The notes under the pieces are model-generated. The model made no database searches, had not been told where the DNA came from, and was given only the letters and a program-made list of their open reading frames with translations. From Octopus vulgaris (lineage: Eukaryota): DNA of 64,000 nucleotides. The position numbers and the translations under genes are program-made. Shown here in pieces: positions 10,842-45,976 of the stretch. The DNA lies in contig CATOCA020000001.1 in assembly GCA_951406725.2 (NCBI GenBank), positions 7,316,001 to 7,380,000 on the forward strand, written 5' to 3'. The stretch's first letter is position 1. Every line of letters starts with the position of its first letter.

Positions 10842-13800
10842 ATTTCCAAATCTTTCATTCTTTCCTTCTTTCTTTCTTCCTTCCTTCCTTCCATTCTTTC
10901 TTTCTTACTTCCTTTCTTTCTTCCTTCCTTCATTTCTCTCATTCTTTCCTTCTTTCTTTCTTTCGTTCATTCGTTCATTCTTTCTTTCTTTCCTTCTTTC
11001 TTTATTCCTTCCTTCCTTCCATTCTTTCTTTCTTACTTCCCTTTCTTTCTTCCTTCCTTCATTTCTCTCATTCTTTCCTTCTTTCTTTCTTTCTTTCCTT
11101 CTTTCTTTCTTCCTTCCTTCCTTCCATTCTTTCTTTCTTACTTCCCTTTCTTTCTTCCTTCCTTCATTTCTCTCATTCTTTCTTTCTTCCTTTCTTTCGT
11201 TCATTCGTTCATTCTTTCTTTCTTTCCTTCTTTCTTTCTTTCTTCCTTCATTTCTCTCATTCTTTCCTTCTTTCTTTCTTCCTTTCTTTCGTTCATTCGT
11301 TCATTCTTTCTTTCTTTCTTTCTTTCCTTCTTTCTTTCTTCCTTCCTTCCTTCCTTCCATTCTTTCTTTCTTACTTCCCTTTCTTTCTTTTTCCTTCATT
11401 TCTCTCATTCTTTCCTTCCTTCTTTCTTTCTTTCTTTCCTTTCTGTCATTCTTTCATTTCCAAATCTGTTTTAATGTAAACAATTCATTGAAGTCTTTCG
11501 AAATTGGCGAATATGTTTAGGGAAGAAGAAAGGAGTGTTTCATTGAGACCTTACGTTTTTTTAAGGGCTTCAGTCATTGCACAGCGGCCAGGCTGGAGTA
11601 AACTTTTCAGGAATTTCAATTGAAGGGAGTACTCCAGCATGTGCGTGTGTGTGCGTGCGTGCATAATACTTCTGTTGGAAACTTTTGCCAAGCGACTAAG
11701 TTTCTTTCTTTCTTTCTTTATTCTTTCTTTCCGTTTTCTTTCTTTTTTCCCTTCTGTCTTTCTTTCTTTCTTTCTTCCTTCATTTCTCTCATTCTTTCTT
11801 TCTTTCTTTCTTTCGTTCATTCGTTCATTATTTCTTTCTTTCCTTCTTTCTTTCTTCCTTCCTTCCTTCCTTCCATTCTTTCTTTCTTTCTTCCTTCATT
11901 CATTTCTCTCATTCTTTCTTTCTTCCTTCATTTCTCTCATTCTTTCTTTCTTCCTTTCTTTCGTTCATTCGTTCATTCTTTCTTTCTTTCCTTCTTTCTT
12001 TCTTTCGTTCATTCGTTCATTCTTTCTTTCTTTCCTTCTTTCTTTCTTCCTTCCTTCCTTCCATTCTTTCTTTCTTACTTCCCTTTCTTTCTTCTTTCCT
12101 TCATTTCTCTCATTCTTTCCTTCTTTCTTTCTTTCTTTCCATTCTGTCTTTCTTTCTTTCTTCCTTCATTTCTCTCATTCTTTCTTTCTTTCTTTCGCTC
12201 ATTCGTTCATTCTTTCTTTCTTTCCTTCTTTCTTTCTTCCTTCCTTCCTACCAATCTTTCTTTCTTACTTCCCTTTCTTTCTTCCTTCCTTCATTTCTCT
12301 CATTCTTTCTTTCTTTCTTTCTTTCGTTCATTCGTTCTTTCTTTCATTCATTCGTTCATTCTTTCTTTCTTTCCTTCTTTCTTTCTTCCTTCCTTCCTTC
12401 CATTCTTTCTTTCTTCCTTCCTACATTTCTCTCATTCTTTCCTTCTTTCTTTCTTTCGTTCATTCGTTCATTCTTTCTTTCTTTCTTTCCTTCTTTCTTT
12501 CTTCCTTCCTTCCTTCCATTCTTTCTTTCTTACTTCCCTTTCTTTCTTCCTTCCTTCATTTCTCTCATTCTTTCCTTCTTTCTTTCTTTCTTTCCTTTCT
12601 GTCATTCTTTCATTTCCAAATCTGTGTTAATGTAAATAATTCATTGAAGTCTTTCGAAATTGGCGAATATGTTTAGGGAAGAAGAAAGGAGTTTTTCATT
12701 GAGACCTTACGTTTTTTTAAGGGCTTCAGTCATTGCACAGCGGCCAGGCTGGAGTAAACTTATCAGGAATTTCAATTGAAGGGAGTACTCCAGCATGTGC
12801 GTGTGTGTGTGTGCGTGCATAATACTTCTGTCGGTAACTTTTGCCAAACGACTAAGTTACTTTCTTTCTTTCTATTTTCTTTCTTTCCTTTTTCTTTTTT
12901 TTTCCCTTCTGTCTTTCTTTCTTTCTTTCTTTCTTCCTTCATTTCTCTCATTCTTTCTTTCGTTCATTCGTTCATTCTTTCTTTCTTTCCTTCTTTCTTT
13001 CTTCCTTCCTTCCTTCCATTCTTTCTTTCTTTCTTCCTTCATTCATTTCTCTCATTCTTTCTTTCTTCCTTTCTTTCGTTCATTCGTTCATTCTTTCTTT
13101 CTTTCCTTCTTTATTTCTTCCTTCCTTCCTTCCATTCTTTCTTTCTTTCTTCCTTCATTCATTTCTCTCATTCTTTCTTTCTTTCCGTCTTTCGTTCATT
13201 CGTTCATTCTTTCTTTCTTTCCTTCTTTCTTTCTTCCTTCCTTCCTTCCATTCTTTCTTTCTTACTTCCTTTCTTTCTTCTTTCCTTCATTTCTCTCATT
13301 CTTTCCTTCTTTCTTTCTTTCTTTCCTTTCTGTCATTCTTTCATTTCCAAATCTGCTTTAATGTAAATAATTCATTGAAGTCTTTCGAAATTGGCGAATA
13401 TGTTTAGGGAAGAAGAAAGGAGTGTTTCATTGAGACCTTACGTTTTTTTAAGGGGTTCAGTCATTGCACAGCGGCCAGGCTGGAGTAAACTTTTCAGGAA
13501 TTTCAATTGAAGGGAGTACTCCAGCATGTGTGTGTGTGTGCGTGCGTGCATAATACTTCTGTCGGTAACTTTTGCCAAACGACTAAGTTACTTTCTTTCT
13601 TTCTATTTTCTTTCTTTCCTTTTTCTTTCTTTTTTTCCCTTCTGTCTTTCTTTCTTTCTTTCTTCCTTCATTTCTCTCATTCTTTCTTTCTTTCTTTCTT
13701 TCGTTCATTCGTTCATTCTTTCTTTCCTTCCTTCTTTCTTTCTTCCTTCCTTCCTTCCATTCTTTCTTTCTTACTTCCCTTTCTTTCTTCCTTCCTTCAT

Positions 13801-14362
13801 TTCTCTCATTCTTTCCTTCTTTCTTTCTTTCTTTCCTTTCTGTCATTCTTTCATTTCCAAATTTGTTTTAATGTAAATAATTCATTGAAGTCTTTCGAAA
13901 TTGGCGAATATGTTTAGGGAAGAAGAAAGGAGTGTTTCATTGAGACCTTACGTTTTTTTAAGGGCTTCAGTCATTGCACAGCGGCCAGGCTGGAGTAAAC
14001 TTATCAGGAATTTCAATTGAAGGGAGTACTCCAGCATGTGCGTGTGTGTGCGTGCGTGCATAATACTTCTGTCGGTAACTTTTGCCAAACGACTAAGTTA
14101 CTTTCTTTCTTTCTATTTTCTTTCTTTCCTTTTTCTTTCTTTTTTTCCCTTCTGTCTTTCTTTCTTTCTTCCTTCGCTTCTCTCATTCTTTCTTTCTTTC
14201 TTTCTTTCGTTCATTCGTTCATTCTTTCTTTCCTTCCTTCTTTCTTTCTTCCTTCCTTCCTTCCATTCTTTCTTTCTACTTCCCTTTCTTTCTTCCTTCC
14301 TGCGTGTGTGTGCGTGCGTGCATAATACTTCTGTCGGTAACTTTTGCCAAACGACTAAGTTA
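10842..14362 (+). repeat. Tandem satellite: ~245-bp conserved core plus variable (CTTT/CCTT/CATT) spacer; 4 full cores and 1 partial
   Basis: Core atttccaaat...gaagtctttcgaaattggcg...gctggagta...tactccagcatg...cgactaag at about 11456, 12612, 13343 and 13853; partial at about 14300. Confidence 0.95.
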
Positions 14363-20686: not shown

Positions 20687-20999
20687 ATGAAAAAACAAGT
20701 CAAAAATAGAAAATGCTAAAATAATTTTATAGTGAACATTTCAGTACCGGTTTCGGTCATTTTGAGACCTTTTCAACTGTAACGATTAAATAATTAAATT
20801 TAGAAAAATTAGAAGAAAAGTTTTCTTAAAAGAATATTTCTATAGTAGTGTTCAGATTTAAGTGGCATTCTGCCTTTCTCTGACTCCCTTGTTTGCACTT
20901 GTGTGTTCGAGGTAGTTGTGAGTTCTTGGTAGGGTAGTAGAGGGAAGGCTGGTGAGGAAAGGGGGGTGGGAGAATCCGGGAGCGCCCCGATGGCCGCAC
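20687..20999 (-). repeat. 5' inverted pseudo-LTR copy
   Basis: About 313 bp, with about 5 differences from the 3' copy by eye. Confidence 0.93.
20742..20779 (-). ncRNA. Same hammerhead in the inverted pLTR
   Basis: Exact reverse complement of 23748-23785. Confidence 0.75.
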
Positions 21000-23066
21000 A
21001 GAAATAGGAGTAACTACACCCCCTCGAAAGGTAAGAATAAAACACTTGATGATTTCTGTGACCACATATCAAATTACCCATATCAACATATGCACAAACA
21101 AAAACACAAACCAAACTTCAGCAAAAAAGAATGGGCTGAGTTGAACAAATTAAAACTAGATAAAACAATAACAATCAAAGAGGCCGATAAAGGGAGTGCT
21201 GTTGTCTTAATGGATACGACATTTTACATAACTTTGGTACTTTCTATGCTGGAAGACACAACATACTATGAAAAGGCACAAAACTACAGTCAACAAAAAA
21301 TAATGAGGGAACTAAAATCCATATTAAACCCATACAAAGCAGGGCTCACCGACAAAGAATATGATTATATGACCAATTTCACAAGTAAAACTAGCCAATT
21401 CTACGGTATACCTAAGATCCACAAAAGTGAAAAAATAAGCAACGCATGCAAGATAGCTACAGACAAAATAATTAAAGTCCCTAATCCTAATGACCTCAAA
21501 TTGAGACCCATAATAGCAGGTCCCGCATGCGAAACCCACCGCCTCAGTAACTTTTTAGACACCCTGTTAAAACCACTCCTCAAACATGTCAAAAGCTATA
21601 TAAGGGACGACTTAGATATGCTTAATCACCTACCGAATACTATAAACAAAAACACCATACTGGTATCCTTCGATGTAGTCAACCTCTACTCCAATATCCC
21701 CCACAACCTAGGACTAGAGGCAATCCAATTCTGGCTAGAGAATCACGCCAACGAACTACCACACCGCATCAAAAAAGAATTTGTGATAGAAGGGGTTAAA
21801 TTCATCCTGGAAAATAACTTCTTCGCCTTCAATGACAACTTCTACCGACAAAAATCGGGGACTGCGATGGGTACACGAATGGCCCCCTCCTTTGCCAACC
21901 TAGTCATAGGATACCTAGAGATCAGTCTGTATCGTAAGGTTCTAGAAAGATATGGCAGCCCTTTCTCCATCTACATAGAAAACAACTGGAAGAGATATCT
22001 AGATGACTGTTTCATCCTTTGGCATAAAAATATAGAAAAACTCATAGAATTCCAGAAAATTTTAAACGGACTGGACGTAAACATCCAATTCACGATGGAA
22101 TATAGCCAACAACAACTCCCCTTCCTCGATATCCTCATTAAGAAAGCTAATAATACAATAGAAACAGACATATACTATAAGCCTACAGACTCTAAGCAAT
22201 ATCTTCCATTCAATTCATGCCACCCCAGACACACCAGGATGAATATCCCCTTCAATCTAGCAAAAAGGATATGCACTATAGTCTCTAACGCAAACACCAG
22301 AGACACACGACTACAAGAACTAAAAGATACCCTAATCACCAGGAACTATCCACCTTCACTTATTGACAAGTGCATTCAACGTGCCCTTCAACTTAACATC
22401 AAGGAACTGAGACATCCCAAATCAAAGAAAAACTTACAACCAAAAGCCTTACCATACATCTCCACACACAACCCTCTCAATAACGAAGCCTTCGACACCA
22501 TCCTCCACAACATACCCCTCCTAAAAAAAGACCACAGAATGAACACAATCCTCCAAACACACACGATCATAAAAAGCAAAAGACAGCCTAGATCCATGAA
22601 AAGTCTCCTTACACAAGCCCGAATTCACTCTTCAACACAGAAGCCGACAGTAAAAAAATGTGGAAGACCCAATTGCGGGATATGCGACTATCTAATCGAG
22701 GGTTCTGAGTTCTCCTTCAAACAGGGACAACGGTTTACAGTGAAAAGCAACTTCACATGTGCTTCGGAGAACCTAATATACTCACTAACCTGCTCCGGGT
22801 GTCAAGAGCAGTACATAGGCCAAACAAAAAATGGTTTGCGTAAACGAATGGCCCTGCACAGATCCCAGATAAAAATTCCCCAAAACAGAAAAATAGCTTT
22901 TAGCCAACACATAGATACTTGCGCCAACAAAAAAACACCAAACTTCAGAATTTTCCCCCTCTACCAATTTAGGGACGATACAACCTCGAGACAAAGAATA
23001 AGTAAAGAAAATCTCTTTATTACAAAATACAAGCCACTTCTTAACGGGTCTACGACAAACAATTAA
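20952..23066 (+). CDS. Penelope reverse transcriptase plus GIY-YIG endonuclease. Uninterrupted but N-terminally truncated; the first ~16 codons come from the inverted pLTR.
   Basis: RT motifs LRPIIAG, SFDVVNLYSNIP, GTAMGTRMAPSFANL, WKRYLDDCF, LPFLDI, IYYKPTD; Cys linker CGRPNCGIC; endonuclease NLIYSLTCSGCQEQYIGQT...RMALHRSQI. Confidence 0.95.
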   Translation: MRKGGWENPGAPRWPHRNRSNYTPSKGKNKTLDDFCDHISNYPYQHMHKQKHKPNFSKKEWAELNKLKLDKTITIKEADKGSAVVLMDTTFYITLVLSMLEDTTYYEKAQNYSQQKIMRELKSILNPYKAGLTDKEYDYMTNFTSKTSQFYGIPKIHKSEKISNACKIATDKIIKVPNPNDLKLRPIIAGPACETHRLSNFLDTLLKPLLKHVKSYIRDDLDMLNHLPNTINKNTILVSFDVVNLYSNIPHNLGLEAIQFWLENHANELPHRIKKEFVIEGVKFILENNFFAFNDNFYRQKSGTAMGTRMAPSFANLVIGYLEISLYRKVLERYGSPFSIYIENNWKRYLDDCFILWHKNIEKLIEFQKILNGLDVNIQFTMEYSQQQLPFLDILIKKANNTIETDIYYKPTDSKQYLPFNSCHPRHTRMNIPFNLAKRICTIVSNANTRDTRLQELKDTLITRNYPPSLIDKCIQRALQLNIKELRHPKSKKNLQPKALPYISTHNPLNNEAFDTILHNIPLLKKDHRMNTILQTHTIIKSKRQPRSMKSLLTQARIHSSTQKPTVKKCGRPNCGICDYLIEGSEFSFKQGQRFTVKSNFTCASENLIYSLTCSGCQEQYIGQTKNGLRKRMALHRSQIKIPQNRKIAFSQHIDTCANKKTPNFRIFPLYQFRDDTTSRQRISKENLFITKYKPLLNGSTTNN

Positions 23067-23194
23067 TATACCTCAACTTTAGAATAAAAGAAAAAAATAT
23101 ATATACACACACAAATACTACACTCCATAGAATCCATTACTAATCAGCCCCTTCATAGCTATATTTACACCCATTCATATTCTTCCTTCTCTGT

Positions 23195-23395
23195 TGTTTT
23201 CTCCTTCTTCTTCTTCTTCATCATCATCATCGTTATCATCATCATCGGCGTCATCATCATCGCCACCATCATCACCACCATCTTCTCCTTCTCCTCCTCC
23301 TTCTTCTTCATCATCATCGTTATCATCATCATCGTCGTCATAATCATCATCACCATCATCTTCTCCTTCTCCTTCTTCTTCTTCTTCTTCTTCTC
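23195..23395. repeat. (CAT/CTT)n trinucleotide tract in the Penelope 3' UTR
   Basis: Direct reading. Confidence 0.9.
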
Positions 23396-23526
23396 CACCC
23401 CTACCCCTTAAGTTTGTCACGAATGTTTTTTAGTATAACACCTACGCTGGTTCTATAAACAAACCTGTCAATGTGGACATTCTCCTGGGTTGAACTGGGG
23501 CTGCCGGCCGCCGCTGACCGTTCGAA

Positions 23527-23840
23527 GTGCGGCCATCGGGGCGCTCCCGGATTCTCCCACCCCCCCTTTCCTCACCAGCCTTCCCTCTACTACCCTACCA
23601 AGAACTCACAACGACCTCCGACACACAAGTGCAAACAAGGGAGTCAGAGAAAGGCAGAATGCCACTTAAATCTGAACACTACTATAGAAATATTCTTTTA
23701 AAAAAACTTTTCTTCTAATTTTTCTAAATTTAATTATTTAATCGTTACAGTTGAAAAGGTCTCAAAATGACCGAAACCGGTACTGAAATGTTCACTATAA
23801 AATTATTTTAGCATTTTCTATTTTTGACTTGTTTTTTCAT
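23527..23840 (+). repeat. 3' pseudo-LTR (portion matched by the inverted copy)
   Basis: Reverse complement of 20687-20999. Confidence 0.93.
23748..23785 (+). ncRNA. Minimal type I hammerhead ribozyme, U3-A8 core variant
   Basis: cag TTGAAAA GGTC tcaaaat GACC GAAAC cg GTA ctg: stem I cag/ctg, stem II GGTC/GACC, palindromic stem III ACCGGT. Confidence 0.78.
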
Positions 23841-23872
23841 ATATATCAACTCGTGTGTTCCTTTTCACCCTT

Positions 23873-23922
<50 letters not shown>

Positions 23923-25222: not shown

Positions 25223-25237
25223 AATGTATATATATAT

Positions 25238-25437
25238 TGTTATATTTCGGAATGGTCATATTGCCAGTTTAGCCAATAAAAACACACGCACTATATATTT
25301 GGTGTTATTTTGCTTCAGTGATATTTATTTTTTACATTAATCTTAATCTTATTTCGGCCAAAGTACATTCGTCACACTCCTGTGACCGCATCAGTGGTCC
25401 TTTGTTTTCTTCTCACTTATTTGTGTCTCTCCTTACT
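25238..25437 (-). repeat. Copy A of ~200-bp pLTR-like repeat (inner end of left arm)
   Basis: Direct repeat of 27114-27313 and inverted repeat of 27341-27541; hammerhead-like motif at 25356-25400. Confidence 0.9.
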
Positions 25438-25637
25438 CTCTGGAGATGCTGACCCATCACCTGTGTTATCCAGAAACTGAGATATTAACTACTTCTACTT
25501 CTCCATTTTTCATTCCACTCTAATTAAATATTCTAAATGACCCGAGATACTCGCCCTGTTTTGGTTTTCATTTATTTTCCTTTAATATGTATGTATGTAT
25601 CTCTCTTTCTATATATATATAGATATATATATGTATG

Positions 25638-25683
<46 letters not shown>

Positions 25684-25755
25684 TATATAAATTTATACGT
25701 CTGTATGTATATATGTATACATATATATATATATTTATATATATATATATATATA

Positions 25756-26048
25756 TCACCGTGATCACCGTGACCGACCATCAGATGTTGCTACACATCG
25801 CTGGTCACAATGCGTTTGTATTGTTTTAGCCTTCGACCGACGCTACCCCGCTGGTTCAGCGAGCAGGCCAACAGAAGAAAGAGTGAGAGAAAGAGTGGTG
25901 AAAGGGTACAGCAGGAATCACCACCCCCTGTCAGAGCCTCGTGGAGCTTTTAGGTGTTTTCGCTCAATAAACACACACAACGCCCGGTCTGGGAATCGAA
26001 GCCGCGTTCCTCCGACCGCGAGTCCGCTGCCCTAACCACTGCGCCTCC
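25756..26048 (-). mobile_element. Full tRNA-derived SINE family 2 in the spacer
   Basis: Minus-strand head ggaggcgcagtggttagggcagcggactcgcggtcggaggaacgcggcttcgattccc; tail ggtcacggtgatcacggtga. Confidence 0.85.
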
Positions 26049-26092
26049 ACACACACACACACACACACACAATATATATATATATATATATG

Positions 26093-26133
<41 letters not shown>

Positions 26134-26409
26134 TATATATATATATACATATATATACACATAAGTGTGTGTGTGCCATAAGCTGTTTTCACTGTCCGTC
26201 TTGTTTATAGCAGAGAACGTTTGCTCTAGGTGCCATGCAGTGGAATTGAACCCGGAATCCTGTTGTTCAGAAACGAACTGCTGACCACACAGCCACGCCT
26301 ATACCTGTAACGCTTGTCTACGTGTCTGTGTGTGTGTCCATACATATATCACTATATACACGTTTCTAATTATATGTGTGTAAGTATGCATGTGTGTGCC
26401 TGTGTATAT

Positions 26410-26710
26410 ACAGATAATTCGATTGAATGTTAAGGTATCGGACGATGTCAGGCAGAGAGATTATGACGTCACAAGAACAAAATAGATTTAAAGAGAGAGC
26501 TTGTCATTCTCTTCTCTTCTCTCACTCTCTCCCCAAACCTTTCTTCTCTCATAATAATTACATCGAAAAAGACCTTAGAAATGAGAACCCAGGTTCGAAA
26601 TTTCCCCACGACACCTGATGAAAGCTGGAGGGTATATCAGCCGAAGCGTTGTGTTTACAACAAACAAGATGAGGACGAATATCCGTCAAATGTAAATAAT
26701 GTAAATAAGA
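26410..26710 (+). mobile_element. Penelope-type pLTR remnant with degenerate hammerhead (26611-26654)
   Basis: acac CTGATGA aa GCTG gagggtatat CAGC c GAAG cgtt gtgt: stems I and II are intact, but GAAA reads GAAG. Confidence 0.6.
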
Positions 26711-26940
26711 AGTTTTATCGTTTCAAATTTTTTAATTCTTTGCTTGTTTCAGCGTATTTTTGACCACCAAAATGACGAAGATTGTATTTTTAGCTGCATT
26801 ACTAAAGGCATTATGTGACTTCGGACTGTTCATTGCTTATACTGTCAATATAGTCGAGTGAAATACTTGACGTGTATCTAAAGGAAATGTTGACCGGCCA
26901 TAATCAAGGATATTCTGTTCGATAACAGCTTCAAAGGGCG

Positions 26941-26989
<49 letters not shown>

Positions 26990-27006
26990 GTGTGTGTATG
27001 TATATA

Positions 27007-27056
<50 letters not shown>

Positions 27057-27059
<3 letters not shown>

Positions 27060-27541
27060 TTAAATATTTGTTGTGCAAGAATTCTTATGTGAAGTCGTGT
27101 GTTGAAACAGATATTGTTATATTTCGGAATGGTCACATTGCCAGTTTAGCCAATAAAAACACACGACTATATATTTGGTGTTATTTTGCTTCAGTGATAT
27201 TTATTTTTTACATTAATCTTAATCTTATTTCGGACAAAGTTCTTTCGTCACACTCCTGTGACCGCATCAGTGGTCCTTTGTTTTCTTCTCACTTATTTGT
27301 GTCTCTCCTTACTAACCGTCTTACAAAATGGCTGACGTTTAGTAAGGAGAGACACAAATAAGTGAGAAGAAAACAAAGGACCACTGATGCGGTCACAGGA
27401 GTGTGACGAAAGAACTTTGTCCGAAATAAGATTAAGATTAATGTAAAAAATAAATATCACTGAAGCAAAATAACACCAAATATATAGTGCGTGAGTTTTT
27501 ATTGGCTAAACTGGCAATATGACCATTCCGAAATATAACAA
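27057..27541 (-). mobile_element. Fold-back mini-element: two inverted ~200-bp pLTR-like copies (B 27114-27315, C 27339-27541) with a ~55-nt one-sided tail, inserted in (TA)n
   Basis: ...gtgtctctccttactaa|ccgtcttacaaaatggctgacgt|ttagtaaggagagacac...; 23-nt spacer, of which cgtc/gacg can pair to leave a 13-nt loop. Confidence 0.85.
27378..27422 (+). ncRNA. Hammerhead-like motif (non-canonical core); also at 27232-27276 (-) and 25356-25400 (-)
   Basis: ggacca CTGATGC g GTCAC aggagt GTGAC GAAA gaac TT tgtcc; copy A has the palindromic loop gtac. Confidence 0.55.
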
Positions 27542-27553
27542 TATATATATACA

Positions 27554-28869: not shown

Positions 28870-29170
28870 TGGCCCAGTGGTTAGTGCAACGGACTCACGG
28901 TTGTAGAATCGCGGTTTCGTTTCCCAGGCCAAGCGTTGTGAGTGATTCTTGAGCTAAAACACCTAAAGCTCCACGAGGCTCCGGCTGAGGGTGGTGGTGA
29001 TCCCTGCTGTACTCTTTCGCCACAACTTTCTCTCAGTCTTTCTTCTGTTGGCCTACTCGCTTAGCCAGCGAGGTTGCGTCATTTGAAGGCTAAAACAATA
29101 CGAAACGCATTGTGACCAGCGATGTGTAGCAGCATCTGACAGCCTGGTTGGTCACGGTGACGGTGAGGGT
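28870..29170 (+). mobile_element. SINE family 2, right arm only
   Basis: ggcccagtggttagtgcaacggactcacgg...ggtcacggtgacggtga; absent between the homologous left-arm flanks. Confidence 0.85.
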
Positions 29171-29200
29171 GTTATATATATATATATATATGTATATATG

Positions 29201-33205: not shown

Positions 33206-35350
33206 GAATGAAAAGAGAAAAAAGAAGGAAAGAAAGAAAGAGCAAGGAAGGAATAAAGTAACGTGATTCTGTAATAATGCATGAAATGGGAGCGGGGAGA
33301 GAGAAAGAAAGAAAGGAAGGCTGGAGGGAAGGAAGGAAGAAGGAAGAAGGAAAGAAGGAATGAAGGAATGAAGGAAATAAGGAAGTAAAAGAAGGAAGGA
33401 AAGAATGGCAGTAAGGAAAGAAAGAAGGAAAAAAGGCAGTAAGAAAAGAAAGAAAGAGAGACAGAAACAAAGAAAGACAGAAACAAAGAAAGAAAGAAAT
33501 AAAGAAAGTAGAAAGGAAAGAAAGAAAGAAAGAAAGTAGAAAGGAAAGAAAGAAAGAAAGAAAGAAAGAGAGAAAGAAAGAAAGGGAGAAATAAAGGAAG
33601 AAAGGGAGAAAGTAAGAAAGAAGGGGAAACAGAAAAGAAAGAAGGTTAGAAGGAAAAAGAGGGAAAGATAGAAAGAATGAAGGGAAAAAAGAAAAAAGAA
33701 AGAAAGAAGGAAAAAAGAAGGAAAGAAAGTGAGAAGGATAAGAGCAGGGTGAGAGGGGGAGAGAGAGAAAAGGAGACAAGGAAAGGAAACGAAGCAACGA
33801 CAGAAAAAAGAAAGGAAGAAAAATGAAAGACGGATTGAAGAAGGAAAGATGAGAGGGAAGAAAGAAAAAAAGAATGAAGGGTAAGAAGAAGGAAATGAAA
33901 AACAGAAAGTAAACAAAGAAATAAGGAAAATAAAGGAAGGAAGGAAGGAAAGAAAGAATGAGAGAAATGAAGGAAGAAAGAAAGAAAGAAAGAAAGGAAA
34001 GAAAGAAAGAAAGAAAAAGGAAAAAAGAAATGAAGAAAGAAAGAAAGAAATGAGGGAAATGAAGGAAGAAAGAAACAAAGAAACAAACAAAGAAACAAAT
34101 AAGAACATTAAAAAAAGAAAGAAAGAAAGAAAGAAAGTGTGTGTGTATACGAAGAGCCTCTTTCAGTTTCCGTCTACCAAGTCTACTCTTACGTCGACCC
34201 GAAGATATAACAGAAGACATCTGGACAAGGCGCCAGGCAGTGATACCGAACCTGGAACCATACGGTTGGGAACCAACTTTCTTACCGTAAAGCCCTGTCT
34301 GTAATTTTAGTTGATAAAACAAATCAAATCTTCGGATACATGTTTCTGATAGTTGAACTTTCTGCTCCACATGTATTCATGGAGAGAAGGAGGCGTGAAA
34401 TATTTCACGCTATGGCTGTAATATCGTTTCTTTTAATTCAGCTGACATCCATCTCGATAATCTTTCGTTTTAAGTATTCACGCGCAGAAAGAAAGAATAC
34501 AGAAAAATCTGCAAACCAAATAAATTAAATGTGATTTCTTTTCAAAGTGAAATATATTCCAAAATTGCTAATTGATTTAAGATATGGCTGAGGGTACTCT
34601 GCCTGTTGTTTCTAGCTCAAAGAAGGTCGCATCTATGGAGTGAGAAGGAACGTGTCTCCATGGACTTCACCATCTGCATTCAGGATGGGAATAAAAAGAC
34701 AATAAACTGAAAAGCAAAAACAATGTCGATATGTAGTACCTGGCTGTTATTTCTAGCATGATGCGAGGCTAAGCTTAGGAGAATATCCTTAACGTTCTCT
34801 GACGCTTCATCAGAGCGAACGATTTGCACGAAACTTGTTTAAACAGGTGAATTAAGTCTGAGCCTCTTCTAAGTGCTGTGTATTGCGTCGCCGAATGGAA
34901 GCTTGGCCGCATCCACAAAGGGAAAAAGGATGAAGAAACGCGAATGCGCGTTGACTTGTGATTTCAGTTGCTGCAGCATCCAACCTATGATTTGTATTGA
35001 GATGTAAGTGTGAACGATTGGAACCAAATGCAGCTGAAAGGCACGAGGAATTCTGAAACTTTCATTATTACACCGGATCGATGTATTTAATTATTTAATT
35101 AATGATTAATTACAGACTTACTCTATGTATGTGTGTCCGCGCGTGTGTGTGTTTACATTTTATTAAACCCCATGGCTTCACGACCAGTGTTTGGTTGTTT
35201 ACGTCCCTGCGGTCGACTTTGCCTTTCATCCTTTCGGGGTCGATAAATTAAGTACAAGTTACGCACTGAGGTCGATGTAATCGACTTAATCCGTTTGTCT
35301 GTCCGTGTTTGTCCCCACCTTGTTTAGCCCCTTGTGGGTAATAAAGACAG

Positions 35351-38232
35351 AGTAACTTAGTCGTTTGGCAAAAGTTACCGACAGAAGTATTATGCACGCA
35401 CGCACACACACGCACATGCTGGAGTACTCCCTTCAATTGAAATTCCTGATAAGTTTACTCCAGCCTGGCCGCTGTGCAATGACTGAAGCCCTTAAAAAAA
35501 CGTAAGGTCTCAATGAAACACTCCTTTCTTCTTCCCTAAACATATTCGCCAATTTCGAAAGACTTCAATGAATTATTTAGATTAAAACAGATTTGGAAAT
35601 GAAAGAATGAGAGAAAGGAAAGAAAGAAAGAAAGAAGGAAAGAATGAGAGAAATGGAGGAAGGAAGAAAGAAAGGGAAGTAAGAAAGAAAGAATGGAAGG
35701 AAGGAAGGAAGAAAGAAAGAAGGAAAGAAAGAAAGAATGAACGAATGAACGAAAGAAAGGAAGAAAGAAAGAATGAGAGAAATGAATAAAGGAAGAAAGA
35801 AAGAAAGAATGGAAGGAAGGAAGGAAGAAAGAAAGAAGGAAAGAAAGAAAGAATGAACGAATGAACGAAAGAAAGAAAGAAAGAAAGAATGAGAGAAATG
35901 AAGGAAGAAAGAAAGAAAGACAGACAGAAGGGAAAAAAAGAAAGAAAAAGGAAAGAAAGAAAATAGAAAGAAAGAAAGTAACTTAGTCGTTTGGCAAAAG
36001 TTACCGACAGAAGTATTATGCACGCACACACACACACGCACATGCTGGAGTACTCCCTTCAATTGAAATTCCTGAAAAGTTTACTCCAGCCTCGCCGCTG
36101 TGCAATGACTGAAGCCCTTAAAAAACGTAAGGTCTCAATGAAACACTCCTTTCTTCTTCCCTAAACATATTCGCCAATTTCGAAAGACTTCAATGAATTA
36201 TTTACATTAAAACAAATTTGGAAATGAAAGAATGAGAGAAAGGAAAGAAAGAAAGAAAGAAGGAAAGAATGAGAGAAATGAAGGAAGGAAGAAAGAAAGG
36301 GAAGTAAGAAAGAAAGAATGGAAGGAAGGAAGGAAGAAAGAAAGAAGGAAAGAAAGAAAGAAAGAATGAACGAATGAACGAAAGAAAGAAAGAAAGAATG
36401 AGAGAAATGAAGGAAGAAAGAAAGAAAGGGAAGTAAGAAAGTAAGATTGGAAGGAAGGAAGGAAGAAAAAAGGAAGGAAAGAAAGAAAGAATGAACGAAT
36501 GAACGAAAGAAAGAAAGAAAGAATGAGAGAAATGAAGGAAGGAAGAAAGAAAGGGAAGTAAGAAAGAAAGAATGGAAGGAAGGAAGGAAGAAAGGAGGAA
36601 GGAAAGAAAGAATGAACGAATGAACGAAAGAAAGAAAGAAAGAAAGAAAGAATGAGAGAAATGAAGGAAGAAAGAAAGAAAGAAAGAAAGACAGAAGGGA
36701 AAAAAGAAAGAAGAAGGAAAGAAAGAAAAAAGAAAGAAAGAAAGTAACTTAGTCGTTTGGCAAAAGTTACCGACAGAAGTATTATGCACGCACGCACACA
36801 CACGCACATGCTGGAGTACTCCCTTCAATTGAAATTCCTGATAAGTTTACTCCAGCCTGGCCGCTGTGCAATGACTGAAGCCCTTAAAAAAACGTAAGGT
36901 CTCAATGAAACACTCCTTTCTTCTTCCCTAAACATATTCGCCAATTTCGAAAGACTTCAATGAATTATTTACTTTAAAACAGATTTGGAAATGAAAGAAT
37001 GAGAGAAAGGAAAGAAAGAAAGAAAGAAGGAAAGAATGAGAGAAATGAAGGAAGGAAGAAAGAAAGGGAAGTAAGAAAGAAAGAATGGAAGGAAGGAAGG
37101 AAGAAAGAAAGAAGGAAAGAAAGAAAGAATGAACGAATGAACGAAAGAAAGGAAGAAAGAAAGAATGAGAGAAATGAGTGAAGGAAGAAAGAAAGAAAGA
37201 ATGGAAGGAAGGAAGGAAGAAAGAAAGAAGGAAAGAAAGAAAGAATGAACGAATGAACGAAAGAAAGAAAGAAAGAATGAGAGAGAGAGAAATGAAGGAA
37301 GAAAGAAAGAAAGGGAAGTAAGAAAGAAAGAATGGAAGGAAGGAAGGAAGAAAGAAAGAAGGAAAGAAAGAAAGAAAGAACGAATGAACGAAAGAAAGAA
37401 TGAGAGAAATGAAGGAAGAAAGAAAGAAAGAAAGACAGAAGGGAAAAAAAGAAAGAAAAAAGGAAAGAAAGAAAATAGAAAGAAAGAAAGTAACTTAGTC
37501 GTTTGGCAAAAGTTACCGACAGAAGTATTATGCACGCACGCACACACACGCACATGCTGGAGTACTCCCTTCAATTGAAATTCCTGAAAAGTTTACTCCA
37601 GCCTGGCCGCTGTGCAATGACTGAAGCCCTTAAAAAAACGTAAGGTCTCAATGAAACACTCCTTTCTTCTTCCCTAAACATATTCGCAAATTTCGAAAGA
37701 CTTCAATGAATTATTTACATTAAAACAAATTTGGAAATGAAAGAATGACAGAAAGGAAAGAAAGAAAGAAAGAAGGAAAGAATGAGAGAAATGAAGGAAG
37801 GAAGAAAGAAAGGGAAGTAAGAAAGAAAGAATGGAAGGAAGGAAGGAAGAAAGAAAGAAAGAAGGAAGGAAAGAAAGAATGAACGAATGAACAAAAGAAA
37901 GAAAGAAGGAAAGAATGAGAGAAATGAAGGAAGGAAGAAAGAAAGAAAGAATGGAAGGAAGGAAGGAAGAAAGAAAGAAGGAAAGAAAGAAAGAAAGAAT
38001 GAACGAATGAACGAAAGAAAGAAAGAAAGAAAGGGAAGTAAGAAAGAAAGAATGGAAGGAAGGAAGGAAGAAAGAAGGAAGGAAAGAAAGAAAGAATGAA
38101 CGAATGAACGAAAGAAATAAAGAAAGAATGAGAGAAATGAAGGAAGGAAGAAAGAAAGGGAATTAAGAAAGAAAGAATGGAAGGAAGGAAGGAAGAAAGA
38201 AGGAAGGAAAGAAAGAATGAACGAATGAACGA

Positions 38233-38264
<32 letters not shown>

Positions 38265-41200
38265 ATGAGAGAAATGAAGGAAGAAAGAAAGAAAGAAAGA
38301 AAGACAGAAGGGAAAAAAAGAAAGAAAAAGGAAAGAAAGAAAAAAGAAAGAAAGAAAGTAACTTAGTCGTTTGGCAAAAGTTACCGACAGAAGTATTATG
38401 CACGCACGCACACACACACACATGCTGGAGTACTCCCTTCAATTGAAATTCCTGAAAAGTTTACTCCAGCCTGGCCGCTGTGCAATGACTGAAGCCCTTA
38501 AAAAAAACGTAAGGTCTCAATGAAACACTCCTTTCTTCTTCCCTAAACATATTCGCCAATTTCGAAAGACTTCAATGAATTATTTACTTTAAAACAGATT
38601 TGGAAATAAAAGAATGAGAGAAAGGAAAGAAAGAAAGAAAGAAGGAAAGAATGAGAGGAATGAAGGAAAGAAGAAAGAAAGGGAAGTAAGAAAGAAAGAA
38701 TGGAAGGAAGGAAGGAAGAAAGAAAGAAGGAAAGAAAGAATGAACGAATGAACGAAAGAAAGGAAGAAAGAAAGAATGAGAGAAATGAATGAAGGAAGAA
38801 AGAAAGAAAGAATGGAAGGAAGGAACGAAGAAAGAAAGAAGGAAAGAAAGAAAGAATGAACGAATGAACGAAAGAAAGAAAGAAAGAATGAGAGAAATGA
38901 AGGAAGAAAGAAAGAAAGGAAGTAAGAAAGAAAGAATGGAAGGAAGGAAGGAAGAAAGAAAGAAGGAAAGAAAGAAAGAAAGAACGAATGAACGAAAGAA
39001 AGAATGAGAGAAATGAAGGAAGAAAGAAAGAAAGAAAGACAGAAGGGAAAAAAAGAAAGAAAAAGGAAAGAAAGAAAAAGAAAGAAAGAAAGTAACTTAG
39101 TCGTTTGGCAAAAGTTACCGACAGAAGTATTATGCACGCACACACACACACGCACATGCTGGAGTACTCCCTTCAATTGAAATTCCTGAAAAGTTTACTC
39201 CAGCCTGGCCGCTGTGCAATGACTGAAGCCCTTAAAAAACGTAAGGTCTCAATGAAACACTCCTTTCTTCTTCCCTAAACATATTCGCCAATTTCGAAAG
39301 ACTTCAATGAATTATTTACATTAAAACAAATTTGGAAATGAAAGAATGACAGAAAGGAAAGAAAGAAAGAAAGAAAGAAAGAATGAGAGAAATGCAGGAT
39401 GGAAGAAAGAAAGGGGAGAAAGAAAGAAAGAATGGAAAAAGAAAGAAAGAAGGAAGGAAAGAAAGAATGAACGAATGAACGAAAGAAAGAAAGAAAGAAA
39501 GAATGAGAGAAATGAATGAAGGAAGAAAGAAAGAAAGAATGGAAGGAAGGAAGGAAGAAAGAAAGAATGGAAGGAAGGAAGGAAGGAAGAAAGAAAGAAG
39601 GAAAGAAAGAAAGAGAGAATGAACGAATGGACGAAAGAAAGAAAGAAAGAATGAGAGAAATGAAGGAAGCAAGAAAGAAAGGGAAGTAAGAAAGAAAGAA
39701 TGGAAGGAAGGAAGGAAGAAAGAAGGAAGGAAAGAAAGAAAGAATGAACGAATGAACGAAAGAAAGAAAGAAAGAATGAGAGAAATGAAGGAAGGAAGAA
39801 AGAAAGGGAAGTAAGAAAGAAAGAATGGAAGGAAGGAAGGAAGAAAGAAGGAAGGAAAGAAAGAATGAACGAATGAACGAAAGAAAGAAAGAAAGAAAGA
39901 AAGAATGAGAGAAATGAAGGAAGAAAGAAAGAAAGAAAGAAAGACAGAAAGGAAAAAAGAAAGAAAAAGGAAAGAAAGAAAAAAGAAAGAAAGAAAGTAA
40001 CTTAGTCGTTTGGCAAAAGTTACCGACAGAAGTATTATGCACGCACGCACACACACACACATGCTGGAGTACTCCCTTCAATTGAAATTCCTGAAAAGTT
40101 TACTCCAGCCTGGCCGCTGTGCAATGACTGAAGCCCTTAAAAAAACGTAAGGTCTCAATGAAACACTCCTTTCTTCTTCCCTAAACATATTCGCCAATTT
40201 CGAAAGACTTCAATGAATTATTTACTTTAAAACAGATTTGGAAATAAAAGAATGAGAGAAAGGAAAGAAAGAAAGAAAGAAGGAAAGAATGAGAGAAATG
40301 AAGGAAAGAAGAAAGAAAGGGAAGTAAGAAAGAAAGAATGGAAGGAAGGAAGGAAGAAAGAAAGAAGGAAAGAAAGAATGAACGAATGAACGAAAGAAAG
40401 GAAGAATGAAAGAATGAGAGAAATGAATGAAGGAAGAAAGAAAGAAAGAATGGAAGGAAGGAAGGAAGAAAGAAAGAAGGAAAGAAAGAAAGAATGAACG
40501 AATGAACGAAAGAAAGAAAGAAAGAATGAGAGAAATGAAGGAAGAAAGAAAGAAAGGGAAGTAAGAAAGAAAGAATGGAAGGAAGGAAGGAAGAAAGAAA
40601 GAAGGAAAGAAAGAAAGAAAGAACGAATGAACGAAAGAAAGAATGAGAGAAATGAAGGAAGAAAGAAAGAAAGAAAGACAGAAAGGAAAAAAGAAAGAAA
40701 AAGGAAAGAAAGAAAAAGAAAGAAAGAAAGTAACTTAGTCGTTTGGCAAAAGTTACCGACAGAAGTATTATGCACGCACACACACACACGCACATGCTGG
40801 AGTACTCCCTTCAATTGAAATTCCTGAAAAGTTTACTCCAGCCTGGCCGCTGTGCAATGACTGAAGCCCTTAAAAAAACGTAAGGTCTCAATGAAACACT
40901 CCTTTCTTCTTCCCTAAACATATTCGCCAATTTCGAAAGACTTCAATGAATTATTTACTTTAAAACAGATTTGGAAATAAAAGAATGAGAGAAAGGAAAG
41001 AAAGAAAGAAAGAAGGAAAGAATGAGAGAAATGAAGGAAAGTAGAAATAAAGGGAAGTAAGAAAGAAAGAATGGAAGGAAGGAAGGAAGAAAGAAAGAAG
41101 GAAAGAAAGAATGAACGAATGAACGAAAGAAAGGAAGAAAGAAAGAATGAGAGAAATGAATGAAGGAAGAAAGAAAGAAAGAATGGAAGGAAGGAAGGAA

Positions 41201-44200
41201 GAAAGAAAGAAGGAAAGAAAGAAAGAATGAACGAATGAACGAAAGAAAGAAAGAAAGAATGAGAGAAATGAAGGAAGAAAGAAAGAAAGGAAGTAAGAAA
41301 GAAAGAATGGAAGGAAGGAAGGAAGAAAGAAAGAAGGAAAGAAAGAAAGAAAGAACGAATGAACGAAAGAAAGAATGAGAGAAATGAAGGAAGAAAGAAA
41401 GAAAGAAAGACAGAAGGGAAAAAAGAAAGAAAAAGGAAAGAAAGTAACTTAATCGTTTGGCAAAAGTTACCGACAGAAGTATTATGCACGCACACACACA
41501 CACGCACATGCTGGAGTACTCCCTTCAATTGAAATTCCTGATAAGTTTACTCCAGCCTGGCCGCTGTGCAATGACTGAAGCCCTTAAAAAACGTAAGGTC
41601 TCAATGAAACACTCCTTTCTTCTTCCCTAAACATATTCGCCAATTTCGAAAGACTTCAATGAATTATTTACATTAAAACAAATTTGGAAATGAAAGAATG
41701 ACAGAAAGGAAAGAAAGAAAGAAAGAAAGAAGGAAAGAATGAGAGAAATGAAGGAAGGAAGAAAGAAAGAATGGAAGGAAGGAAGGAAGGAAGAAAGAAA
41801 GAAGGAAGAAAGAAAGAAGGAAAGAAAGAAAGAATGAACGAATGAACGAAAGAAAGGAAGAAAGAAAGAATGAGAGAAATGAAGGAAGGAAGAAAGAAAG
41901 AAAGACAGAAGGGAAAAAAGAAAGAAAAAGGAAAGAAAGAAAAAAGAAAGAAAGAATGAGAGAAATGAAGGAAGGAAGAAAGAAAGGGAAGTAAGAAAGA
42001 AAGAATGGAAGAAAGGAAGGAAGAAAGAAAGAAGGAAAGAAAGAAAGAAAGAACGAATGAACGAAAGAAAGGAAGAAAGAAAGAATGAGAGAAATGAAGG
42101 AAGGAAGAAAGAAAGAACGACAGAAGGGAAAAAATGAAAGAAAAAGGAAAGAAAGAAAAAAGAAAGAAAGAAAGTAACTTAGTCGTTTGGCAAAAGTTAC
42201 CGACAGAAGTATTATGCCCTCACGCACACACATGCACATGCTGGAGTACTCCCTTCAATTGAAATTCCTGAAAAGTTTACTCCAGCCTGGCCGCTGTGCA
42301 ATGACTGAAGCCCTTAAAAACGTAAGGTCTCAATGAAACACTCCTTTCTTCTTCCCTAAACATATTCGCCAATTTCGAAAGACTTCAATGAATTATTTAC
42401 TTTAAAACAGATTTGGAAATAAAAGAATGAGAGAAAGGAAAGAAAGAAAGAAAGAAGGAAAGAATGAGAGAAATGAAGGAAAGAAGAAAGAAAGGGAAGT
42501 AAGAAAGAAAGAATGGAAGGAAGGAAGGAAGAAAGAAAGAAGGAAAGAAAGAATGAACGAATGAACGAAAGAAAGGAAGAATGAAAGAATGAGAGAAATG
42601 AATGAAGGAAGAAAGAAAGAAAGAATGGAAGGAAGGAAGGAAGAAAGAAAGAAGGAAAGAAAGAAAGAATGAACGAATGAACGAAAGAAAGAAAGAAAGA
42701 ATGAGAGAAATGAAGGAAGAAAGAAAGAAAGGAAGTAAGAAAGAAAGAATGGAAGGAAGGAAGGAAGAAAGAAAGAAGGAAAGAAAGAAAGAAAGAACGA
42801 ATGAACGAAAGAAAGAATGAGAGAAATGAAGGAAGAAAGAAAGAAAGAAAGACAGAAGGAAAAAAAGAAAGAAAAAGGAAAGAAAGAAAAAAGAAAGAAA
42901 GAAAGTAACTTAGTCGTTTTGCAAAAGTTACCGACAGAAGTATTATGCACGCACACACACACACGCACATGCTGGAGTACTCCCTTCAATTGAAATTCCT
43001 GAAAAGTTTACTCCAGCCTGGCCGCTGTGCAATGACTGAAGCCCTTAAAAAAACGTAAGGTCTCAATGAAACACTCCTTTCTTCTTCCCTAAACATATTC
43101 GCCAATTTCGAAAGACTTCAATGAATTATTTACATTAAAACAAATTTGGAAATGAAAGAATGACAGAAAGGAAAGAAAGAAAGAAAGAAGGAAAGAATGA
43201 GAGAAATGGTGGAAGGAAGAAAGAAAGGGAAGTAAGAAAGAAAGAATGGAAGGAAGGAAGGAAGAAAGAAAGAAGGAAAGAAAGAAAGAATGAACGAATG
43301 AACGAAAGAAGGGAAGAAAGAAAGAATGAGAGAAATGAATGAAGGAAGAAAGAAAGAAAGAATGGAAGGAAGGAAGGAAGAAAGAAAGAATGAAAGAAAG
43401 AAAGAATGAACGAATGAACGAAAGAAAGAAAGAAAGAAAGAATGAGAGAAATGAAGGAAGAAAGGAAGAAAGACAGACAGAAGGGAAAAAAAGAAAGAAA
43501 AAGGAAAGAAAGAAAAAAGAAAGAAAGAAAGTAACTTAGTCGTTTGGCAAAAGTTACCGACAGAAGTATTATGCACGCACGCACACACACGCACATGCTG
43601 GAGTACTCCCTTCAATTGAAATTCCTGAAAAGTTTACTCCAGCCTGGCCGCTGTGCAATGACTGAAGCCCTTAAAAAAACGTAAGGTCTCAATGAAACAC
43701 TCCTTTCTTCTTCCCTAAACATATTCGCCAATTTCGAAAGACTTCAATGAATTATTTACATTAAAACAGATTTGGAAATGAAAGAATGACAGAAAGAAAG
43801 AAAGAAAGAAAGAAAGAAGGAAAGAATGAGAGAAATGAAGGAAGGAAGAAAGAAAGAATGGAAGGAAGGAAGGAAGGAAGAAAGAAAGAAGGAAAGAAAG
43901 AAAGAATGAACGAATGAACGAAAGAAGGGAAGAAAGAAAGAATGAGAGAAATGAATGAAGGAAGAAAGAAAGAAAGAAGGAAGGAAGAAAGAAAGAAGGA
44001 AAGAAAGAAAGAATGAACGAATGAACGAAAGAAGGGAAGAAAGAAAGAATGAGAGAAATGAATGAAGGAAGAAAGAAAGAAAGAATGGAAGGAAGGAAGG
44101 AAGAAAGAAAGAAGGAAAGAAAGAAAGAATGAACGAATGAACGAAAGAAAGAAAGAAAGAAAGAATGAGAGAAATGAAGGAAGAAAGAAAGAAAGACAGA

Positions 44201-44950
44201 CAGAAGGGAAAAAAAGAAAGAAAAAGGAAAGAAAGAAAAAAGAAAGAAAGAAAGTAACTTAGTCGTTTGGCAAAAGTTACCGACAGAAGTATTATGCACG
44301 CACGCACACACACGCACATGCTGGAGTACTCCCTTCAATTGAAATTCCTGATAAGTTTACTCCAGCCTGGCCGCTGTGCAATGACTGAAGCCCTTAAAAA
44401 AACGTAAGGTCTCAATGAAACACTCCTTTCTTCTTCCCTAAACATATTCGCCAATTTCGAAAGACTTCAATGAATTATTTACATTAAAACAAATTTGGAA
44501 ATGAAAGAATGACAGAAAGGAAAGAAAGAAAGAAAGAAAGAAAGAAGGAAAGAATGAGAGAAATGAAGGAAGGAAGAAAGAAAGAATGGAAGGAAGGAAG
44601 GAAGAAAGAAAGGGAAGTAAGAAAGAAAGAATGGAAGGAAGGAAGAAAGAAAGAAAGAAGGAAAGAAAGAAAGAAAGAATGAACGAATGAACGAAAGAAA
44701 GAAAGAAAGAAAGAATGAGAGAAATGAAGGAAGAAAGAAAGAAAGGGAAGTAAGAAAGAAAGAATGGAAGGAAGGAAGGAAGAAAGAAAGAAGGAAAGAA
44801 AGAAAGAAAGAATGAACAAATGAACGAAAGAAAGAAAGAAGGAAAGAATGAGAGAAATGGAGGAAGGAAGAAAGAAAGGGAAGTAAGAAAGAAAGAATGG
44901 AAGGAAGGAAGGAAGAAAGAAAGAAGGAAAGAAAGAAAGATTTGGAAATC
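35351..44950 (-). repeat. Same satellite, 13 cores
   Basis: Cores at about 35352, 35978, 36744, 37490, 38358, 39092, 39997, 40730, 41444, 42174, 42905, 43531 and 44254; periods about 626-905 bp. Confidence 0.95.
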
Positions 44951-45976
44951 TTCACAGATTTTATTTCACAAAACAGAACCTGATACAGATACAGGCAAAA
45001 AGGGATGCAAGAAGAGTTACTATCCTTACCGTTCGCTCCTCCCATCTAATTATCTAATTCACCTTGACTCCACCCATTTCATTTATTACCTCCTACCCTT
45101 CCTCTATTTGCAAATATATTCATCGTCCTCTCTCTCTCTCTCGCTCCCTCTTTCTCTGTCTCTCTATCTCTTTCTATTCTCTCATCTCATTATTTATTAC
45201 AGAATCCTCCCACTCTCTTCTTTTCCGTCTTAACCCCGCCCCCCGTTCTCTACCTTGCTAGACACATATAGCATTTTGTTTCAATCCCCCCTCTCTCTCT
45301 CAGTCGTTCTTTCTCTCTCTCTCTCTCTCACCCTCCCTTACTCTATATATCTTTCTATATCACTCCGTCACTCTTCTTTCTCTCTCTCTCCCTCCCTTCC
45401 TCTCTCTCCCATTCGTCCTTTCTCTCTCTCTCTCCCTCCTCCCTTAATCTATATATCTTTCTGTATCACTCTGTCACTCTTCTTTCTCTCTCTTACCTCA
45501 TGCTCTCTCTCTCTCCCTCCCTTCCTCTCTCTCTCAGTCCTCCTTTCCCTCTCTCTCTCCTCCTCCCTTAATCTATATATCTTTCTATATCACTCTGTCA
45601 CTCTTCTTTCTCTCTCTTACCTCATCCTCTCTTTCTCTCTCCCTCTTTTTCTCTCTCTCTCAGTCGTCCTTTCTCTCTCTCTCCCTCCCTTACTCTATAT
45701 AACTTTCAATATCACTCTCTCTCCCTCCCTTCCTCTCTCTCTCAGTCCTCCTTTCTCTCTCTCTCTCCCTCCCTTACTCTATATATCTTTCTATATCACT
45801 CCGTCACTCTTCTTTCTCTCTCTTTCTCTCTCCCTCCCTTTCTCTTCCGTCTACCAAAACACGTCAATCATCTTCTCCCTCTTTGTCTCCTTTCTCTCAG
45901 CCTCTCATTTTCAACACACCTCCGCCTTCCTTTCTATATTACCTCATTCTCTCCTCTTGCTTCAAATATATATCAG

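Follow-up and report, generated by a model that had tools for sequence, protein, structure and literature searches.

Two copies of a duplicated octopus segment, probably joined in inverted orientation after a break near the tip of a Penelope-like hairpin

The locus

The analysed window is a stretch of 64,000 nucleotides from Octopus vulgaris (G000:C31:7316001-7380000, in a 2.8-Gb assembly). It covers the centre of a large inverted repeat, whose arms are about 38.5 and 40.4 kb long. The unduplicated spacer between the arms measures 1.9 kb (25438-27340) and holds ~1.6 kb of upstream DNA together with a whole hairpin. The features of the window are as follows.

1 to 25437, minus strand: left arm, one copy of the duplicated segment, extending ~13 kb to the left of the window
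20687 to 23874, plus strand: full Penelope of a different family from the hairpin, with an intact 714-aa ORF, in the left arm only
25234 to 25437, plus strand: half hairpin, the tail-less arm of the same insertion in the other segment copy, cut 7 nt before the loop
25437 to 25439, no strand: junction, with 1 nt added or blunt, of single occurrence in the assembly
25439 to 27056, plus strand: unpaired centre, corresponding to the sequence found upstream of the hairpin in siblings
27057 to 27544, minus strand: hairpin, a head-to-head pair of 5'-truncated Penelope-like 3' ends in (TA)n, with the tail-bearing arm at 27057-27320, a 13-nt loop at 27321-27333 and the tail-less arm at 27334-27544
27341 to 64000, plus strand: right arm, another copy of the duplicated segment, extending to about 67745
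28871 to 29172, no strand: SINE-like repeat, in the right arm and most siblings

The hairpin and its Penelope-like family

An earlier note on this DNA, made from its letters, had described a hairpin of ~200 bp with a tail on one side, set in (TA)n. All of this was found: the inverted arms lie at 27111-27313 and 27341-27544 with 96% identity, the tail occupies 27057-27110, and (TA)n tracts border the hairpin on both sides. The spacer of 23 nt given in that note is wrong, because past one mismatch the stem continues to 27320/27334, leaving a loop of 13 nt in the DNA fold. The mismatch that hides the inner stem in the window hairpin is paired in most sibling copies. The computed single-strand fold of the hairpin has an energy of -237 kcal/mol. 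Within the 264 kb around the window there are only two tight hairpins, and the focal one is alone in the 42-kb duplicated unit.

A 30-nt tag of the hairpin family gave 2299 exact matches, against 0 for a control. For the parent search, 11 long loci were picked as minus/plus tag pairs. A Penelope-type parent, which had been proposed as a check, was found in this way, as longer copies encode a reverse transcriptase (RT) and a GIY-YIG-like region, and the hairpin is 97.7-98.2% identical to the 3' end of the parent copy L132. The RT of the window Penelope was matched by 6 of the 11 long loci (27%, E about 1e-10), and its amino acids 604-708, the region with a weak Pfam GIY-YIG match, by 8 of them (30%, E about 1e-6). 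L132 has a 5'-truncated frame of 623 aa with RT motifs including YVDD, a CxxC motif and a GIY-YIG-like core. In the parent translation, a Y..YVG core with two Cys and two His is discernible and was counted as the CCHH pattern of a GIY-YIG endonuclease. A CX2-5CxxC-type motif, described in the available text of PMC8557442, is visible ahead of GIY-YIG in the parent, as in Neptune/Nematis PLEs, a candidate clade for it.

Profile and structure searches with the parent gave a Pfam RVT_1 match at E 0.001, under the curated cut-off, weak RT matches in NCBIfam, no Pfam match to GIY-YIG in the hairpin-family parent itself and no match in the PDB. Rfam gave no hammerhead match in the hairpin, solely sub-threshold hairpin/microsatellite matches; a weak Rfam hammerhead match belongs to the full Penelope. 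The 3' end of the hairpin-family parent contains a CTGA-stem-GAAA core. The layout of the hairpin had been likened to that of the full Penelope at 20687-23874, and this likeness stands, but a shared family does not, as the two have no DNA match and their parents have 27-30% protein identity.

The arrangement of the family was followed in 34 distinct two-arm loci (the hairpin search supplied 17 of them and the tag search 8, and 9 are long pairs), obtained from 58 loci by leaving out duplicates, one-arm views and two multi-arm loci. In every one of the 34, the arms face each other head to head, are truncated independently of one another and have ends separated by 54 nt; each locus has a single tail and is flanked by (TA)n. 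A DNA search with the two-tailed copy gave 852 candidates, and of the 40 that were scored, only this copy itself covers both tails (1/40). A layout of inverted pLTRs with a one-sided tail has been described for PLEs (PMC3846280, PMC8557442), and in vitro both target strands are nicked and extended from two start sites that define the tail (PMC11167929). The single tail and the (TA)n setting of 34 out of 34 loci fit these both-strand RT starts, as far as they are reported in the accessible part of PMC11167929.

Most copies of the duplicated segment carry this hairpin, a Penelope-like insertion with 5'-truncated arms placed head to head. Like the PLEs in the available portions of these three papers, it has truncated head-to-head arms, a single tail and a (TA)n target, and in its family a GIY-YIG-like region, preceded by a CxxC motif, comes after the RT. 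Unlike the PLEs described there, the hairpin family has a tail of 54 nt instead of 30-40, and some of its insertions are palindromes of ~5 kb with the RT region in both arms. Three such palindromes of 4.3-4.9 kb are L129, L130 and L131 (G000:C1:83.58, 78.13 and 74.56 Mb).

Segment copies and changes at hairpin tips

A 442-bp arm piece has 11 matches at an identity of at least 99%, of which 10 lie on C31 and one on C7; both orientations occur. The hairpin insertion is present in 7 of the 9 non-window copies and lacking in two (6691k and 5660k), and it was found in 0 of 18 further, mostly older, family loci. The copy at G000:C7:1.69-1.76 Mb, on another chromosome-size contig, has the outer part of the unit opposite in orientation to the inner part.

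In the copy 4650k, the hairpin loop is flipped. In the copy C31:5856k, the tail and ~230 bp of upstream host DNA have been copied in reverse onto the other side, together with the variants particular to C31:5856k. This grown hairpin (G000:C31:5857068-5857609) and its flanks (L007, L015, L069/L070) have small internal deletions, and a short right-flank piece has been replaced. To judge from these sequences, the focal hairpin is unstable and able to seed inverted copying at small scale. Such changes are rare at other insertions: within 500 bp, inverted host flanks were found in 0 of the 34 dispersed two-arm copies (with one unrelated 68-bp match, and with 3 flanks shorter than that distance). 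A screen of 20 hairpins in the family sequence yielded the focal junction and a few small tip rearrangements, with no large palindrome.

Hairpins with arms of 120-180 bp occur in one copy each at L168:1150-1400 and C31:10031k (about 5356), where the siblings are linear. Their new arms start at a short quasi-palindrome and end in (TA)n, which suggests small template-switch fold-backs that may have returned at a self-complementary TA tract. Another TA-flanked hairpin (L161:8598, L166:1061 and L168:992, compared with G000:C7:1699083) has an asymmetric central gap, which in three copies ends ~19 nt from the centre.

The junction of the inverted repeat

As the earlier note had reported, arm homology stops at CCTTACT, with left-arm positions 25246-25437 matching 27532-27341 at 97.9%. 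The outer flank of the half hairpin is the same as the flank to the right of 27544. The boundary had been placed 2 nt from the stem end; with the stem extended, it lies 7 nt from the 13-nt loop and 14 nt from the centre. Compared with most loci, one base has been added at the join, and compared with one of them the join is blunt. Among 42 matches, the window alone spans the junction, and all 26 other loci shown, of 29, carry the old upstream sequence. No microhomology was found at the junction with close copies, including no inverted microhomology of at least 2 bp. The reciprocal product, with the tail and left stem only, was found in 0 of 18 further family loci.

A chimeric retrotransposon insertion was considered as the source of the junction and rejected, because both sides continue the genomic context of the siblings, and 25439-25584 is 100% identical to several copies. 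The centre starts in an older dispersed repeat (25439 to about 25600), where the partner break lies. This repeat has a CTGA..GAAA hammerhead-like core and forms head-to-head pairs elsewhere (L197, L200, L201). No parent ORF for it was found in 21 loci; ORFs in L058 and L195 were rejected as its parent, as they look like separate insertions.

The position of the boundary near the hairpin tip is unlikely to be due to chance (p about 0.001-0.017). A random break would fall as near as 12-30 nt to the sole tight hairpin in the 42-kb unit with a probability of 0.001-0.003 for the two ends of the junction, and of 0.007-0.017 if ~12 family breakpoints, a rough guess, are allowed, both before selection among many windows. 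A coincidence would mean that, of many family breakpoints, one happened to fall near a hairpin. About a dozen other family homology ends do lie elsewhere (an approximate count), often in simple repeats, and the finding was selected after the fact. Against this stand the low p values and the other rearrangements at the tips of the focal and other hairpins in siblings, and coincidence is considered quite improbable.

The junction might also be an assembly or chimeric-read artefact that joins copies or haplotypes. The 1.4-2.2% by which the arms diverge could reflect alleles, there is a 100-N gap (72797-72896) 5 kb past the right arm, and the junction is not bridged by any contig piece among those listed from 7 public runs. 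Other individuals, however, need not carry the junction. At the junction itself there is no N and no overlap. One arm has a whole Penelope and the other a SINE that its counterpart lacks, and the outer flanks differ, unlike read fold-back artefacts. An artefact is thus held to be very unlikely. Outside the arms, there is patchy inverted likeness (92-98%) between -65 to -42 kb and +129 to +161 kb in window coordinates (G000:C31 ~7.25-7.48 Mb).

Relation of the two arms

Of 3291 complete sites located no more than 6 kb from the centre, 71 differ between the arms. The left arm is nearer to C7:1705k and C31:6547k (44 differences each), and the right arm is nearer to C31:5856k (47). A cleaner alignment has 69 arm differences over 3150 sites, of which 50 have both alleles in other copies, 12 are private to the left arm and 7 to the right; one site near the centre is exclusive to the arm pair. 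At position 27234, both right-arm hairpin stems have A and the half hairpin has C, a marker that is weak alone, as stems also convert each other. In one inner block (253 sites), the right arm is the second-nearest copy of the left arm.

In the outer arms, the arm pair differs at 209 of 15429 sites (1.35%), the lowest value among pairs compared over at least 12.5 kb; the other pairs range from 1.42 to 2.03%, with the right arm and C7 at 1.42%. Exclusive shared sites in the outer arms number 10 for the arm pair versus 21, 18, 14 and 13 for other pairs. Past the outer edge, the left arm continues like C31:10095-10101k and the right arm like C31:4126-4131k, and no new outer junction was seen at the inverted repeat. 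The nearest copy of the left arm shifts block by block, and all segment copies are mosaics.

These data argue strongly, though not finally, that the arms belong, already diverged, to a family that numbers at least 11 copies, and that they are not sisters near the centre. Some shared ancestry or conversion between them apparently exists, in view of the outer-arm distance and the 253-site block. The idea that the hairpin created the duplication is not borne out, as the arms are separate members of the family and their outer flanks follow different copies. Moreover, a palindrome seeded by the hairpin would have the loop as its centre; the middle of the present one is occupied by 1.6 kb of upstream DNA and by the hairpin in full.

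In its full form, that idea holds that the hairpin seeded a local fold-back or template switch from the right arm to the left arm, and that later exchange erased their likeness. After a local fold-back, the arms should be sisters and a new outer junction should exist; neither was seen, and the data speak against it. As all copies are mosaic, later exchange could mask that the arms were once sisters; in the outer part, the smallest distance is, by a narrow margin, that between the two arms, the same hairpin seeded the 230-bp inverted host-DNA copy in C31:5856k, and the size of the spacer fits fold-back duplications as far as these are described in the available text of PMC3907307. Opposed to it are the lack of inverted microhomology at the junction, the 50 of 69 differences that are shared alleles with 1 site exclusive to the arms, the structural markers and outer flanks that differ by lineage, and the inverted host flanks in 0 of 34 dispersed two-arm copies. 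The origin by local fold-back is regarded as highly improbable.

A replicative origin is another alternative. Here, break-induced replication would have switched to an inverted copy elsewhere, copied backwards, ended at the hairpin and rejoined at 25439. The site would then be junction 2 of a DUP-TRP/INV-DUP-like event, and there would be a real new duplication, of another copy and not of the right arm. Such an event accounts for the lack of a new outer junction and for a left arm that runs on like another copy, inverted relatives border the region, and blunt or 1-bp-insertion second junctions are known in such events (PMC11293582, in the part available). No single donor copy, however, fits the left arm throughout. 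A hairpin that stalls a fork would be expected to halt it at the base of the stem, and the boundary is near the tip. Replicative copying is therefore considered unlikely.

A probable break near the tip followed by end joining

The best explanation, with a probability of about 0.58, is that one of two diverged copies of the segment broke near the hairpin tip and was then linked to the other by end joining. A boundary left by a later deletion, which the earlier note had itself set against its model, or by a later join is the best reading. Reverse transcription that started on both strands of a nicked (TA)n target would have produced the insertion. Its 200-bp stem may then have been extruded as a cruciform, which was cut and opened near the tip, and the broken end would have lost the loop and 7 nt. 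This end would have been ligated to another break, which lay in a second copy of opposite orientation, 1.9 kb upstream of the hairpin there. The simplest route would be a deletion of everything between two inverted neighbours; in the present data, such a deletion looks the same as copying of a distant copy.

One stem kept near the tip, a small loss and no homology form the pattern of a palindrome-centre break joined by NHEJ, as described in the accessible part of PMC4940405. In yeast, inverted Alus with 12-bp spacing give hairpin-capped breaks (PMC3855049, in the part available). Counting against end joining, the partner break is away from any hairpin tip, and there is a single junction. In addition, a 1.9-kb spacer with a small insertion also fits the human fold-back duplications in the text available of PMC3907307.

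Comparison with known systems

Among known systems, PATRR translocations were compared from the available portion of PMC4940405. In both cases there is a near-perfect palindrome of several hundred bp, a break near its centre (here 14 nt), a small loss and no homology. Unlike a PATRR, the hairpin is not >90% AT and stems from a single retrotransposon insertion; the partner end falls within a linear repeat and not in the centre of an AT-rich palindrome, and the product is an inverted join of duplicates. By this analogy, the break at the hairpin tip would work like a PATRR break without being one, and cruciform extrusion is putative. A known fragile retroelement-derived inverted repeat shares the 12-13 nt loop; there, the palindrome is centred on the repeat and the arms are sisters, neither of which holds here. 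The locus also differs from hairpin-seeded giant palindromes (short inverted repeats, ODIRA, inverted Alu), as the symmetry centre is off the loop, the DNA of one side is not lost and the arms are not sister copies, with a weak contrary signal in the outer arms.

Inverted arms around an unduplicated centre of kb size are a likeness to fold-back inverted duplications with a spacer, where the centre falls within 0.8-70 kb (PMC3907307), and to ODIRA (PMC4689423). Unlike both, as far as the available parts of the two papers describe them, the locus has no microhomology, sister arms or new outer junction. In the same portions, human fold-back duplications have insertions at 5/21 junctions (PMC3907307), and ODIRA junctions may secondarily lose one arm (PMC4689423). 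Like DUP-TRP/INV-DUP events, as given in the accessible text of PMC11293582, the locus would have one junction hidden in inverted low-copy repeats, and the other is blunt or has a 1-bp insertion. Those events have a 2-3-2 copy profile; the present locus is represented by a single mosaic assembly.

Significance

Each ingredient of the proposed event is already known, and the unusual part is the Penelope source of the hairpin in a known mechanism. Palindrome-centre breaks are well known, usually from engineered or chance repeat pairs, and fragility of this kind is known from inverted Alus and PATRRs. A Penelope insertion makes a palindrome in one step, and the hairpin family alone has its 2299 exact tag matches. 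A literature search, mostly outside subscription journals, found no paper on Penelope hairpins at duplication breakpoints, and the available text of an octopus repeat annotation (PMC13282606) does not mention 'palindrom'.

It is conceivable, though doubtful, that Penelope elements in this genome lay down thousands of palindromes of 0.5 to 5 kb in single insertion steps, and that these act as fragile sites driving the shuffling and inverted copying of segmental duplications, with the junction and the sibling host-DNA fold-backs as traces. Should such tips prove over-represented at rearrangement junctions, a neglected source of structural change would have come to light in animal genomes rich in PLEs. 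The present evidence is one junction, and the stronger claim, that the hairpin made the giant palindrome, fails.

Other contents of the arms

The full Penelope has inverted ends at 20689-20999 and 23527-23838. The right arm and all 9 sibling copies lack it at this site; it is a private insertion of the left arm. The SINE-like repeat is missing, between two (TA)n tracts, from the left arm, C31:4650k and C31:5660k. A tandem array with a TTTC-rich unit of ~730 bp (10900-14300 and 35340-45000 of the window) has ~13 copies in the right arm and far fewer in the left. In the right arm, positions 63456-64521, which extend beyond the window end, hold two adjoining frames of a putative mariner-type transposase, by the look of their motifs.
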